A stretch of DNA of 64,000 bases from an uncultured Verrucomicrobiae bacterium (GTDB lineage: Bacteria > Verrucomicrobiota > Verrucomicrobiia > Limisphaerales > Palsa-1400). The stretch is from positions 3,040,001-3,104,000 of the forward strand of contig OY969763.1 in assembly GCA_963702845.1 (NCBI GenBank), in the 5' to 3' direction. Positions 39,001 through 48,000 of this stretch are shown in pieces (the stretch's first letter is position 1; each line of letters starts with the position of its first letter). The position numbers were made by a program.

Positions 39001-42000
39001 GTGTTCGCGATGGGTTGCTTGGAAATGTCGGTAAAGATTTCGATGTCGAAGTTTTCGGAGTCACTTACGAGCAATTGGCCCAGGCACTCTCGCGCTGGGG
39101 TCGGACCGATCTGGTTGGCCGTTCTTTCGGTGTCGTCAAATTGACTACCGGCGGCAATCACACCTACGACTTCACCATTCCACGCCGTGATTCCAAAGTC
39201 GCGCCCGGCCACAAGGGTTTCACCATCGAGTTCGACACTAACATTAGTTTGCGCGATGCCGCTGCGCGGCGCGATTTCACGATCAACTCGATCATGTACA
39301 ACCCGCGCTCGCGTGAGCTGTTGGATTTTTTCGGCGGCAAAGCGGATTTGGAAAAGCGTGTCCTACGGCACACCAGCGACGCGTTTGGTGAAGATCCGTT
39401 GCGCGTTCTTCGCGGCATGCAGTTCGTGGCGCGGTTCAATCTCGAACCAGCCGCTGAAACATTAACGCTGGCGCGCGCAATTTCTCATCACCACGGCCAA
39501 CTCGCTCCGGAACGCGTTCGCGAAGAGTGGTTCAAGTGGGCCGCCAAAAGCACCAGCCCTTCGGCTGGCTTGAGATTTCTCGTCGCGACTGACTGGATTG
39601 ATCATTACCCCGAACTCAAAGCCTGCATCACTACGCCTCAGGAACCGGCTTGGCATCCTGAAGGCGACGTTTTCGTGCATACCTGTCATTGCTGCGATGC
39701 ACTGGCCGAATTGCCACAGTGGCAACAAGAAGACGAACAGTCACGAATCGCGCACATGCTCGCGATTTTGGCTCACGATTTCGGCAAACCGCAAACAACG
39801 CGCCGTGAAATGAAAGATGGCGTCATGCGCATCACTTCGCCAGGCCATGACGAAATCGGCGCTGATCTCGCGAAATCATTCATGGATCGCATCAATGTGC
39901 CGCTCGCGATTCAGCAACGCGTCGTCCCGCTCGTGCGCAGTCATCTTTTTCACTTCAACACCATTACCGATCGCGGCGTGAGACGTTTAGCAAAGCGTCT
40001 CGAACCGGAGAACATTGAGTCGCTCGCGCTGATTATGACGGCGGACAGTTTGGGACGACCACCGCGTCCACCACAGGTGCCGGAGCATGTAACCGAGTTG
40101 TTGGAAAAAGCGCATGAATTACAGGTTCGCAAACAACCAGCACCACCGATCCTGATGGGACGACATTTGATTGAATTGGGAATGCAACCAGGTTCAAAAT
40201 TTGGGGAGATTCTCCACGCCGGTTACGAGGCGCAGCTGGAAGGAACGTTTTTTGATTTACCGGGAGCCTTGGAATGGCTGAAAACGTATCGCGCCACGTA
40301 GGATTTGAGATCGGCAAATCGCCATCAGCTCAGCATGCGTTCGTAAATCTGATAATCGCTCCGCTTCATCCCGAGCCATTCGTAGGCCTTTTGCGCAGTC
40401 GCGTTGTCACCCTCAACATAGAGGCGAACACCGCAGACATTTCCTGCCTTTTTGGCTTCAGTCACGACGTGCGCGTAAAGCGATTTGAAAACTCCCTTGC
40501 CGCGCGCGGACTTATCCACGTAGACACTTTGCAACCACCAGAAGTTGCGGTTGCGCCAGTCGCTCCACTCATACGTGATCAGCACCTGGCCGACGAGGTC
40601 TTCACCGAGTTCCGCAACAAAATAAGTCCCTTTGGCTGGATCGCGGACCAAAGCTTCGACACCGGCGCGAACGGTTGCCGGATCGAGGCGAATGTCTTCA
40701 GTCTCATGAGCCAGGAACGCATTGAAATCGGCAATGATTTCAACGTCCCGCAGTTCAGCTTTTCGGATAATGGTATTGATGAGATCAGAATACTTGCGCG
40801 AGACTCCAAATCAATCTTTGACGCAACCGCGAGCGCACATAGGTTTGCGTGGGATAAAAGGGAAAAGCGTTTGCGGCTGAACCGCCCTCGTTTCCAGCAT
40901 AAGTGTCTGGAGCGACTCACAGGATGCTCAATGCCGCAAACGCATTTTTTTTCAGGTGCGCGAACTCACTTGGACAATGGATGTCCAGGTAGTAGGATTG
41001 CGCGCGATGAAGACCGCTTCAGGCAAAAACAATCCACTTTCGCGTGCGCCGTTGGAACGCATGCTGCGGATTCATCAGGCCCTTCAAGCTGCTGATTACC
41101 CGAACGCCAATAAACTGGCGGAATTGATCGAGGTCAGCGCCAAGTCCATTCATCGCGATTTGGAGTTCATGCGCGACCGACTCGGGTTGCCGCTCGCCTA
41201 CTGTTTTGATCACCGGGGATACTATTACACGCAGGAGGTCAGCAGCTTTCCCACGTTGCAGATCACCGAAGGCGAATTGTTTGCCCTGCTCGTCGCGGAA
41301 AAAGCGCTCCAGCAATATCGCGGAACAACATTTGAAAAACCGCTGGTGAGCGCGTTTCGCAAAATGTCGGCATCGTTACCCGACACGATTTCGCTGAGCG
41401 TCGCTGACTGGGAACAGACCATTTCCTTCCGCACGCGCGCCGAGCCCCTGCTTAATCTGGAAATTTTTGACGTGCTCGCAAAAGCCGCTGCACAACGCAA
41501 GCAACTGAAGTTGATTTATCGCAAACCCGGCCAGCGCGAAACCGAATCGCGCATCGTCGACCCATATCATCTGGCAAACATTAACGGTGAATGGTTCATG
41601 TTTGCCTGGTGTCACTTGCGCAAAGCCATTCGAACATTTGCTCCGGCACGAATCAAATCAGTTGAAGAAACCGGCAAAACGTTCGTGCGTCCGCTAAAGT
41701 TTTCACTCGATAAACGATTGCGCGATAGTTTCGGCGTTCGTTCGGGCAACGAACAATTCAAAGTCGTGATTCGTTTCAATGAAATCGTGGCCGACTACAT
41801 TCGCGAAAAAAAGTGGCATGATTCGCAGCAACTGAAGGAACTCGTTGACGGCGGGGTTGAACTGACCCTGACGCTGTCGAGCCTTGTCGAAGTAGAACGT
41901 TGGGTCCTGAGCTGGGCAGGCAACGCCAAGGTTATTCAACCGATCGCATTGCGCAAAACCGTCAAGGTCGCTGCGCAAAGGATCATCGACGCAGCTTAAC

Positions 42001-45000: not shown

Positions 45001-48000
45001 CGAACAGCCACGCGGTTCGGCTTCTACCGCGCGCCCGAGCAGCTCGAAACCGCCATCGCGCCGAATCGCGAGGTCTTCAGTTTGAATCGCGAGGACCGAA
45101 TAAACGTTGGCCAAATCAAAGATGCGGACAAGGCCAATGTCACGGACGGCAACTTCTTTTCCAGTCTCCGGCGAAATGATTTGCGCGCAAGCCCACGGTG
45201 GAAAACGAAAGACGCGATCTGGGTTATCGTAAGCTTGAGAGCTCAGTTCGCTCATTCCGTATTCAGAGATGATTTGTGAGGGCGCAATCCCGAACCGATC
45301 TTCGATCATCGCGAGTAATTCTGTTTTCGGCACGACGCGGCTGCGGCCTTTGTATCCGCCGGTTTCGAGCACGCGCGAGCCCGACGGCAATTTGAACCGA
45401 ATGTTTCGAGCGGCCATTTCATCCAGGAGATGGACGAAGCTGAATGCCGTTCCAACAACCGCAACCGGTTCACGCTGGCTACAGAACATTTCCAGCAAAG
45501 TCAGGGTTTTATCGGCATTCACAACCCATGCACGATCTTCAGCAATGGTTCCTGTAAATACCGTATCGTGAACGTCGGCAATCGTGCCGAACATATGGAC
45601 CAAAGAGGAATTCGGCACGGCGGATGCCGACGGCGTTAATGAGATAAACCTCAATTTCCTATCGCGCTCAAAAAACTTTTCGGAAAACCAACGCATTAAT
45701 GACGCTTCGTAAATCATCAGCGATTGGTCGGAATGAAAATGACGGCTTGGACGTTGTTCGGTCGTGCCGCTTGAATGGAAGACGCGCGTCCGCTCTTCAG
45801 GCGCGAGGCTGGTCAGTTCGAAATCCTTGAACGCACTTGTCGGGACCGATGGGATGGCGCACCAGTGCGCGGGCTTGGCATTGCGTAAGACACGTTCGCA
45901 AAGCTTACGATAGGCCGGCACGCTGTCGAACTGCAATTGAAATAACGCCAACGCGAGTTCGTTGAATCGATCAGGATCGTTCTTACCGGAATCAATAAAT
46001 GCCAGCAACTCCCTGAAAAATCCCGAAGTGAATGAAATTGTTTCATGTGCGGTTTTGCGAACCCGGACTTTCCGGTTTCGGCTGGTTTTCCGCTACAGCC
46101 GCGACTGAAAATTATGTTACTTCGACGCCGTCGTAGCAGTCTTGGTGAGGGTCCAGTCGAATATGACCTTCACCTCATCACCGCACTTCATTAATCCCAA
46201 ACCGAAGCTCGGGGCCGGCGGCTTGACGCCGTAAGCGGTCATTTTGACGGGAGCGGATCCGGCGATCTTCAGTTTGTCTTTCTCCGGCACGTCGATCGTT
46301 ACGGGAAATGTAACTTTGTTCGTCACGCCCGCAATGGCGAGTTCACCGGATGCGTCGAACTCGAACGGCTTACCGGCGGCATGCGGTTCTTTGAACGTCA
46401 GTTCAGTAATATGACATTCAATCTTCTTGTTTTGAGGTTCTTTCAAAGACTCCTGCATCAAACCTTCCATAACCTGCGGCATCGCCTTCGCGTCGCTCTT
46501 GAGGGAGCGAACGGGAATGATCACTTGCGATTTGATCGCGAGTTTTTTGTCCTTGAGACCGGGAATGGTCGCTTGCGCGGTATCGAATTGGACGCCAGGC
46601 TCAAACTCGACAAAGCCGCCGATCAACGTGCCTTCCATTTCCCAATCGTGCGCAGTTGAAGTGCCTTCGATTCGCACTTTGTTCCCAGCCGGTTGAGATT
46701 GATAGCGATCCCCATCCGCAGCATGTAAACCGAGCGCGGACGTTAGTGCGATAGTCGTGAGTATTAGGCGTGTTTTCATTTGGTGCTTTGCTTGAAATTA
46801 AACTTCGAACCATTCGTTCTCGAACTTGATCCGTGTGTTTTTCATCACGGCTTCATGTGTCTTAAGAGCGATGACGGTGGCGTCGAAACCGTCCTGCCAA
46901 GTGGCGGCGGGATGTTGTTTGAAAGCGCTATGTTTCGCCGCCTGCATCTGCTCGGCCATCGCTTTTTGATCGCTGTCACCGTAGAGCTGAACGAAGTCGT
47001 CAATGGCTGCATTAATTGCCACCGCGTTGATCATGAAATTTTCCAGGCAATAATGCAGAGCAGAAAACGGATACGCTGAATCCTCCGTCGCTTTGGTGCC
47101 GAGTGCTGCTTGCTTGGTCGCGTTGGCGACGAGTGCGACACCAGTTTCTTTATAGAACTGGTCCTTGCGCGCGTAGACTTCCCAACCGAGCAGCGGAGCG
47201 TCGACTTCCTTAAACATCCACGCCTTGTTTTCGCGCAGCATGATCGAAGCGTCGACACCGTAATACATCTCGTAATCAGCATCGAAGGAACTGGCGAGAG
47301 TCGCGTCGTACATGAACTTCGCGCCTTCGGGATATTCGAGCACAGCCTGCATCGTGTCAGGGATATCGCGACCATCGTTCCACAAGAGAATCGAGCCAAA
47401 ACCATTGACTGCGGTCGGACGCGTTTTCCAGAACCAGGTAACAGCGTCGAGTTGATGAATGCCGATTTCACCAGCGAGACCAGCGCTCGTTTCGCTATGC
47501 AGGCGCCAGTTCACGATCTTGTCGCGATCGGGATTGGACGACGGCCGTTGCCAGCTTTGTTTATTGTGCCATTGCGCGCGCGCCATGATCTGTTTACCAG
47601 AAGCGCCCGAGCGAATGAAGGGCAAAAGAAATTGGCGTTGCGGATGCGAGCGTTCCTGCAATCCGCTTTGGAAGTACCGAACTGAATCGCGAGCGGCGCG
47701 GGCAATCGCCTTGGCGTCCTCGACGGTATGGGCCAACGGCGCTTCGCAATAGACATGTTTGCCGGCCTTCAACGCAGCAATCGCGATGTCTTTGTGCAAA
47801 TGCGTCGGCGTTGCGACGATGACGGCGTGGATATCTTTGTTGGCCAGCAACTGGTTGTAATCCTCATATTGCTGCGCCTTGGGGGCCGCTTCGGAGTTAC
47901 GAGCGAGTGCGCGTTTATACGTGTCGCAAATGGCGATGACGTGCGGTCCGTTTTCTTCTTTCTGCTGAGGAAATTGTTGGAGCGCATCGAGAATGGCACG

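Follow-up and report, generated by a model that had tools for sequence, protein, structure and literature searches.

In the 64,000-nt window analyzed here, four genes on the minus strand form a tight run (Table 1), separated by gaps of 12, 6, and 8 nt. QueD has its CxxxHGH motif, and its ATG start lies 8 nt past the luxC stop. An initial annotation had placed queD and the LuxC-like and LuxE-like genes in a single run, and queE beside a class III aminotransferase (AT); both arrangements are real. The MFS transporter gene between the two lux-like genes was absent from that annotation. It occurs at 10 of 37 Verrucomicrobiota loci and at none of 43 other loci, and is an accessory, lineage-restricted part of the locus.

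Table 1. Genes of the run in the window and the separate queE-AT pair.
Feature	Position	Strand	Match
LuxE-like acyl-protein synthetase, 345 aa	44971..46008	-	Pfam LuxE, 64.5 bits
MFS transporter, 418 aa	43702..44958	-	Pfam MFS_1
LuxC-like acyl-thioester reductase, 445 aa	42358..43695	-	Pfam LuxC, 250 bits
QueD, 6-carboxytetrahydropterin synthase, 117 aa	41996..42349	-	TIGR03367, 106 bits (cut-off 89)
queE and class III AT, adjacent, outside the window	C1:5326758-5328831		

On sequence grounds, the two lux-like proteins belong to the LuxE and LuxC families, carrying the LuxE Lys/Arg pair and C-terminal cysteine and the LuxC catalytic cysteine, respectively. Residues K220, R326, and C335 of the LuxE-like protein are invariant in an alignment with 22 homologues and align with K238, R355, and C364 of LuxE. 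Similarly, C268 of the LuxC-like protein is invariant and aligns with the catalytic cysteine of LuxC. The LuxE-like structure model (pLDDT 89) is closest in fold to PaaK-type and aryl-acid adenylating enzymes, while the LuxC-like model (pLDDT 91) has LuxC as its top match (7xc6, TM 0.80). The AT (PF00202, 332 bits) has the PLP lysine, Lys271, and a DE..TGFGR motif. Neither Pfam nor fold comparison revealed a nucleic-acid-binding domain in the enzymes.

The characterized relatives LuxCE and TabE/TabA raise the possibility that the product of this trio is a fatty aldehyde or fatty amine, which we consider extremely unlikely. The C terminus of the LuxC-like protein stops short of the segment that in LuxC makes up the distal end of the fatty-acyl cleft, and this segment, with T465, L478, and F483, has no counterpart in the alignment. 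As previously claimed, the proteins score far below the NCBIfam equivalog cut-offs for luminescence enzymes (64 versus 550 bits for the LuxE-like and 67 versus 750 bits for the LuxC-like protein). Furthermore, no luxA/B/D or ACP gene was seen among the neighbors, and a fatty product would leave the linkage to que genes unexplained.

The established queuosine pathway runs FolE-QueD-QueE-QueC-QueF-TGT-QueA-QueG/H; in it, FolE, QueD, and QueE make 7-carboxy-7-deazaguanine (CDG), and QueA requires an aminomethyl group. The genome, a single contig that is 89.8% complete, has the full de novo set of folE, queD, queE, tgt, queA, and queG; tgt, queA, queG, and folE are present in one copy each, and QueE was assigned by its context, its Cx3Cx2C motif, and its membership of the radical SAM family. 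At this level of completeness there is no match to QueF, no YhhQ was found, and the QueC homologues score below the TIGR00364 cut-off for housekeeping QueC. This inventory bears out the initial annotation, which had left two QueC-like genes unchecked. Both are of defense type, with PADLOC matches to a QueC/TGT system and to QatC: the first is a CBASS type IV–like QueC whose neighbors are a TGT-like gene and an ORF that resembles nucleotidyltransferases and begins MGG, and the second is QatC. The first, a 216-aa homologue, was rejected as housekeeping QueC, as its YxQxHxxE, VPxRN, and YPDC motifs are missing. The TGT retains Cys158 and Val233, as in preQ1-using bacterial TGT, as does one TGT in each of five other genomes; in two genomes, a second TGT has Leu in place of Val233. 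No preQ1 riboswitch was detected in this genome or at 18 loci of the luxE-luxC-AT module.

We find that LuxC and QueF rarely co-occur in Verrucomicrobiae. Among 201 genomes, Pfam searches assigned LuxC only to 108, QueF only to 79, both to 1, and neither to 13, closely matching an earlier tally of 106 with LuxC, 80 with QueF, none with both, and 15 with neither. This class sample was searched for LuxC, QueF, QueC, the AT, and QueE. An orthologue of the LuxC-like protein or the AT was present in 113 genomes (both in 105), and of these 113, none had full-strength QueF and one had QueC. In contrast, all 80 genomes with QueF also had QueC. QueE was matched in 110 of the 113, and gave no match in any of the 8 genomes that lacked LuxC-like, AT, QueC, and QueF. 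The lack of a match is weak evidence, however, since the query also failed in 8 genomes with QueF. The reported alternation within families is also seen, both states occurring in four families (f72, f74, f79, and f84) and one genus (g171).

These counts depend on score thresholds chosen after gaps in the scores were seen, and on samples that consist mostly of metagenome-assembled genomes, in which related genomes are not independent. For LuxC, matches that did not reach 1e-15 were treated as cross-matches to aldehyde dehydrogenase and left out. Weak QueF matches were also excluded; they have E values of 1e-3 to 1e-6, cover model positions 1-61, and lie in ORFs of about 200 aa or more, and we infer that they are FolE-type cross-matches. 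Five of these in the class set and two in the 43-genome set described below lie just over the Pfam cut-off. A phylum-wide Verrucomicrobiota scan with a single LuxC protein matched 8 of 241 genomes; because it lacked sensitivity and favored other lineages, it was not used in the cross-tabulation. G060, which has LuxC and QueC/QueF, was dismissed as an exception: its LuxE/LuxC differ, lie in a glycosylation cluster, and fall outside the clade. G326 has the trio, with an internal TGA in luxE, plus a near-canonical QueC, and G417 has LuxE/LuxC plus a canonical QueC.

The same mutual exclusion recurs in a second phylum and across 43 genomes from other phyla. Among 181 Myxococcota genomes, 146 had a LuxE-like protein, 34 a QueF-like protein, 5 both, and 6 neither (this sample was searched for LuxE and QueF). 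Four of the five genomes with both can be explained: in the QueF-like proteins of G495, G555, and G585, the PEFTCLCP motif is without its presumably catalytic cysteine, and G573 falls outside the clade in the tree. Of the 43 LuxE-holding genomes outside Verrucomicrobiota, none had full-strength QueF and one had QueC over the cut-off, while 37 had a QueE-like protein and 42 had QueA.

The trio is also physically linked to queuosine genes. queD adjoins luxC at 21 of 37 Verrucomicrobiota loci, queE adjoins the AT at 25 of 29 loci, and, in two further sets of loci, AT, luxE, and luxC occur together at 17 of 43 and at 24 of 30. The junctions to que genes vary, comprising luxC-queD, queE-AT, and queE-luxE, the last including a queE-luxE-luxC run at L156.

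Phage clusters carrying the trio are a new observation of this analysis. All 11 viral contigs with a LuxE relative, from two phage lineages, hold queD, folE, and queE-luxE-luxC-AT together. In both annotated lineages, one gene also matches phiST CGPG_00065, the published DpdA3 transglycosylase (25% identity over ~215 aa; pairwise E 5e-14 and 1e-10); this DpdA3-like gene occurs with folE, queD, and queE, as in known Dpd clusters. As in the phage Dpd clusters with DpdA3, this set adjoins a replication module. Published preQ1-type phages (immuto_2-6A), however, encode QueC and QueF, whereas QueC was absent from the three viral records searched, and neither QueC nor QueF had a tblastn match in the two whole records. 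A scan of viral contigs with a single LuxC protein gave no match.

Could the QueC/QueF step be filled by some other unrecognized protein or by salvage, with the trio merely tracking lineage history? Large clades are uniform, LuxC being present in all 27 other genomes sampled from the order, so independent switches are few, and MFS transporters are able to import preQ1 (PMC11130926). We nevertheless judge this very unlikely. Switches occur within four families and one genus, and the pattern is repeated in a second phylum. Retained queD and queE would be superfluous for salvage, and the phage clusters unite the trio with folE, queD, queE, and DpdA3.

We consider it likely that the LuxE-like and LuxC-like enzymes and the class III AT replace QueC/QueF, converting CDG to preQ1 via an aldehyde. 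The LuxE-like enzyme would adenylate the carboxyl of free CDG with ATP and load the acyl group onto its C-terminal Cys335, from which it would move to Cys268 of the LuxC-like enzyme. There, the thioester would be reduced with NAD(P)H to 7-formyl-7-deazaguanine, which the PLP-dependent AT (Lys271) would turn into preQ1. TGT would then insert preQ1 into tRNA for QueA and QueG, and phage DpdA would insert it into DNA. This route had been proposed in the initial annotation, and the exclusion, linkage, phage clusters, and conserved residues support it at the genomic level. Many bacteria and some phages without QueC/QueF carry the trio in their place, and with it probably make the same precursor by different chemistry. 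We did not find the route in the literature searched.

The distribution and linkage would fit equally well if the trio acted on a 7-deazaguanine at another stage or made another product: its substrate might be CDG already in tRNA or DNA, or CPH4 ahead of QueE, or its amine product might not be preQ1. Insertion of CDG by DpdA3 has been proposed (PMC10516641), and an amidoligase-like gene lies within the cluster of one phage lineage. We regard this as unlikely on balance. The enzymes, without a nucleic-acid-binding domain, resemble small-molecule ligases and reductases, and the preQ1-type pocket is kept in TGT. Because the described substrate of QueE is CPH4 (PMC13329287), carboxyl reduction before QueE would need a changed QueE, and the same type of QueE is also found in QueC/QueF genomes such as G048, G289, and G340.

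The LuxE family has at least one other job, since a clade associated with TPP riboswitches nests inside the same tree. These LuxE relatives (34-39% identity) occur with luxC, a short-chain dehydrogenase (SDR), and NMT1/THI5 or NCS2 transporters, and TPP riboswitches precede such plasmid loci in three of four examined. Salvage of oxidized thiamin pyrimidine (from the acid through the aldehyde to aminomethylpyrimidine), or of some other heteroaromatic acid, might accordingly be the role of the trio. We think this highly improbable: it leaves the QueC/QueF exclusion and phage clusters unexplained, there are no thiamin genes among 139 neighbors, and no TPP riboswitch was found at the AT- or que-linked loci scanned, of which L007 stops short of the region upstream of the window's luxE. 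Neither an SDR nor an NMT1/NCS2 transporter accompanies luxE-luxC in the module; in the window, their neighbors are MFS, queD, and YceI. The sister clade nonetheless suggests that small heteroaromatic acids are likely what the LuxE/LuxC family reduces. For OarX-linked thiamin salvage candidates, it has been predicted that the carboxyl of such an acid is activated and reduced (PMC11223231); a luxE-luxC-SDR form under TPP riboswitches is a sister of this module. The plasmid SDR may be OarX itself; that system ends in an SDR, whereas the module ends in an AT.

The proposed route shares folE, queD, and queE upstream and tgt, queA, and queG downstream with the QueC/QueF route, and would begin, like QueC, with carboxyl adenylation. 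It would then proceed through thioester, aldehyde, and transamination rather than amide, nitrile preQ0, and nitrile reduction. LuxE/LuxC provide a precedent for the chemistry (PMC9157457; PDB 7xc6), with a common fold, the LuxE catalytic Lys/Arg/Cys, and the LuxC catalytic Cys and His-Asp. The module differs in its ~19-24% identity, shorter C terminus, lack of luciferase/LuxD, and pairing with an AT and que genes. The same thioester-to-aldehyde-to-amine logic is found in tambjamine synthesis (TabE, from a LuxC-like cluster, with the class III transaminase TabA, in vitro, bioRxiv 2025.08.11.669332; and TamA/TamH), although those enzymes use fatty acyl-ACP in secondary metabolism and are likened here by chemistry, not sequence. 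De novo queuosine synthesis is described as needing QueC and QueF, and pathway reconstructions sort genomes on these two enzymes (PMC11130926); whole phyla would thus be wrongly scored as incapable of making queuosine. If correct, this new chemistry fills the QueC/QueF pathway hole, assigns a function to a large protein family whose members in non-luminous bacteria bear bioluminescence annotations, and predicts phage DNA modification made without QueC/QueF. It would also suggest a candidate for the reductase still missing from thiamin-acid salvage, and supply a natural cascade that takes heteroaromatic substrates from acid to amine. EhpF/EhpG are reportedly a further precedent, from phenazine synthesis.

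More broadly, and with somewhat less confidence, we favor a widespread, preQ0-free second route to preQ1 that combines a heteroaromatic carboxylic acid reductase of the LuxE/LuxC type with either of two AT clades. In much of Verrucomicrobiae, Myxococcota, and Gemmatimonadota it would be the principal way of making queuosine, and phages would have captured it for DNA hypermodification, with a sister branch reducing oxidized thiamin fragments. The same route may explain orphan luxE/luxC genes of non-luminous Bacteroidota. Some observations count against the proposed replacement of QueC/QueF. The phage AT represents the second clade, at 27-29% identity to the genome's AT; a member lies at the same place in phage Myrna, with no que/lux genes annotated, and at 45 of 49 metagenome loci of this clade no luxE/luxC is nearby. 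Likewise, two Sumerlaeota genomes have LuxE and LuxC without an AT orthologue (best match 37-38%). Separately, Streptomyces plasmid luxE/luxC pairs (22-30%) occur in other contexts without que genes. In INPHARED, the phage LuxE had no match, while LuxC had a single match, unannotated and at 24%.

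We find that the trio of a LuxE-like ligase, a LuxC-like reductase and a class III aminotransferase (AT), proposed in the initial annotation as a route to the queuosine precursor preQ1, very probably replaces QueC and QueF in some form. The gene content behind that proposal is confirmed. The LuxE-like, LuxC-like and queD genes form one run with gaps of 6-12 nt, within which we also place an MFS transporter gene, and queE adjoins the AT gene elsewhere on the contig. Both Lux-like proteins score far below the luminescence cut-offs. The genome (89.8% complete) also keeps single copies of tgt, queA, queG, folE and each of the four GUN tRNAs, and has no match for QueF or YhhQ. 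A WYL-domain regulator gene overlaps queD by 4 nt; L037 is arranged alike, and at L156 a WYL gene also lies 3' of luxC.

Features of the source genome (C1, its contig)
Feature	Position	Strand	Remark
LuxE-like gene	window 44971-46008	minus	NCBIfam 64 bits, cut-off 550
MFS transporter gene	between LuxE-like and LuxC-like genes	minus	in window run
LuxC-like gene	window 42358-43695	minus	NCBIfam 67 bits, cut-off 750
queD	window 41996-42349	minus	over QueD NCBIfam cut-off
WYL-domain regulator gene	window 40956-41999		convergent with queD
Repeat-protein gene	window 52378-61554	minus	3058 aa; Ig-like, FN3-like, autotransporter-associated repeats (by eye)
queE and class III AT	C1:5326758-5328831		adjoining; outside window
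Type IV CBASS-like locus	C1:4490907-4495950		QueC-like, TGT-like, nucleotidyltransferase-like (MGGS start), glycosylase-like, effector-like genes
QatC-like gene	C1:4821622-4823670		682 aa

One set of 201 Verrucomicrobiae genomes, whose related members are not independent, was profiled for LuxC, QueF, QueC, AT and QueE, with thresholds placed where gaps in the scores were visible. LuxC (E<1e-15) was found in 109 genomes, full-strength QueF in 80 and QueC over its cut-off in 81; 110 genomes have an AT orthologue (at least 43% identity), and 182 match QueE. The claimed exclusion between LuxC-like proteins and QueF was borne out: the sole overlap, G060, has its LuxE and LuxC in a glycosylation cluster, outside the clade, and was counted with the QueF group for cross-tabulation. 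With G060 excluded, 113 genomes hold LuxC or AT (105 hold both); none of them has QueF, 110 have a QueE match, and QueC occurs only in G326, in a defence island (the luxE of this genome has an internal TGA). Eight genomes lacking LuxC, AT, QueC and QueF gave no QueE match either, and the same query also missed 8 QueF-positive genomes. The two states do alternate inside single families (f72, f74, f79 and f84), and also inside one genus (g171). Among Verrucomicrobiota loci, queD lies 3' of luxC in 21 of 37 and queE 5' of AT in 25 of 29.

The source genome was said to have no housekeeping queC and two QueC-like genes in defence or mobile loci, and this holds; both are defence genes. The first hits the PADLOC QueC model; the YxQxHxxE, VPxRN and YPDC motifs are missing from it, and next to it stand a TGT-like gene and an ORF beginning MGG, an arrangement reported for type IV CBASS. 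The host of this locus makes 7-carboxy-7-deazaguanine (CDG), yet apparently no preQ0. The second matches QatC and sits in a mobile-element-like region near integrase, primase-like and terminase-like genes.

The trio extends beyond Verrucomicrobiota. Among the best 80 of at least 600 loci from a LuxE alignment search, 43 belong to Myxococcota, Gemmatimonadota, Spirochaetota, Vulcanimicrobiota, Acidobacteriota, Omnitrophota, Sumerlaeota and Pseudomonadota; AT, luxE and luxC are grouped in 17 of these, with varying neighbours, and L156 has the order queE-luxE-luxC. In these 43 genomes, for which completeness is not given, full-strength QueF was not found; QueE-like proteins occur in 37, QueA in 42, and QueC over its cut-off in one (G417), within a queC-queD-folE2-dpdC cluster. 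Among 181 unselected Myxococcota genomes, from the phylum of G412, 146 have LuxE-like and 34 QueF-like proteins, with both in 5 and neither in 6. One double holder (G573) was rejected as an overlap, its LuxE lying outside the clade, and in three of the five the QueF-like protein lacks the motif cysteine. These proteins (L223, L224 and L226) are about 195 aa long, one encoded immediately 3' of queG. AT, luxE and luxC are grouped in 24 of the best 30 loci of this sample. The AT orthologue is present but unlinked in all three Gemmatimonadota checked and was not found in either of two Sumerlaeota; there the gene after luxE encodes a class I/II aminotransferase (L112 7043-8248; L130 7116-8318), a possible third amine-transfer partner.

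This second phylum, Myxococcota, and a set of phage clusters support and strengthen the interpretation of the trio on genomic evidence. Viral contigs with a LuxE relative number 11 (L256-L266; G604-G606), and each has queD, folE and queE-luxE-luxC-AT within 10 kb. The contigs form two lineages, L256 alone and ten that are 86-99.9% alike in DNA, with 25-43% protein identity between lineages; both look like myoviruses, and their replication module is similar to that of phage Myrna. An amidoligase-like gene is extra in one lineage and a Tad4-like gene in the other. The gene between folE and queE matches Cellulophaga phage phiST CGPG_00065, published as DpdA3, a 7-deazaguanine DNA transglycosylase type (PMC10516641). 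QueC was not found in the three phage records searched, and tblastn against two whole records, of which one has terminal repeats, gave neither QueC nor QueF. Since QueC and QueF are both encoded by the preQ1-type DpdA3 phage already published, the trio occupies their place in these clusters; preQ1-type DNA modification is predicted for both lineages.

The phage AT belongs to a second class III clade (VYGE motif; L292-L363). Its 49 metagenome loci mostly stand alone on low-GC contigs, with luxE-luxC adjoining in four (L322, L325, L328 and L333), and in Bacteroidota and Nitrospirota the clade may be a marker of the proposed route. Mycobacteriophage Myrna has, in syntenic position (L279 8965-10092), a long-branched member around which no que or lux gene is annotated; it is possibly a remnant.

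LuxE relatives (34-39% identity) nested inside the same tree as the que-linked proteins occur on plasmids of Azospirillum, Pantoea, Priestia and Lactiplantibacillus (L076, L077, L078 and L079). They sit with luxC and an SDR gene, with a THI5-type or NCS2 transporter in three and a TPP riboswitch at three of the four loci. These relatives point to small heteroaromatic acids as family substrates, from which the SDR would yield an alcohol and the AT an amine. The plasmid luxE-luxC-SDR set is a candidate for the reduction of acids that arise from oxidation of the thiamin thiazole or pyrimidine, and its SDR may be OarX, a protein of thiamin salvage candidates (PMC11223231).

K220, R326 and C335 of the LuxE-like protein, and C268 of the LuxC-like one, show no variation and line up with catalytic residues published for LuxE and LuxC. 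Predicted structures are confident (pLDDT 89 for LuxE-like, 91 for LuxC-like); the nearest folds are phenylacetate- and aryl-acid ligases for the former and 7xc6 for the latter. The LuxC-like protein stops short of the residues at the distal end of the fatty-acyl cleft of LuxC; its invariant Arg, Gln and Trp residues have no counterpart in LuxC. In what is probably the correct scheme, and the likeliest, CDG would be converted to CDG-AMP, pass through thioesters on LuxE and then LuxC, and give 7-formyl-7-deazaguanine, which would yield preQ1. QueF mutants are known to form this aldehyde as a by-product, and fatty amine has been made in vitro by a class III transaminase acting after a LuxC-related reductase (bioRxiv 2025.08.11.669332). 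The literature covered, mostly outside subscription journals, gave no link from LuxE/LuxC or an aminotransferase to preQ1; trio-bearing phages could appear in the gene tables of PMC10516641. Background came from PMC11223231, PMC13329287, PMC3660597, PMC9157457, PMC13740343, PMC11278526, PMC11130926, PMC4772473 and bioRxiv 2025.04.06.647259. The route is supported as a candidate new form of queuosine/7-deazaguanine biosynthesis that draws on known enzyme folds. The TGT of the source genome retains Cys158 and Val233. Two other genomes (G389 and G474; L250 and L251) each have two TGTs, the queA-adjacent copy with Leu at the Val233 position.
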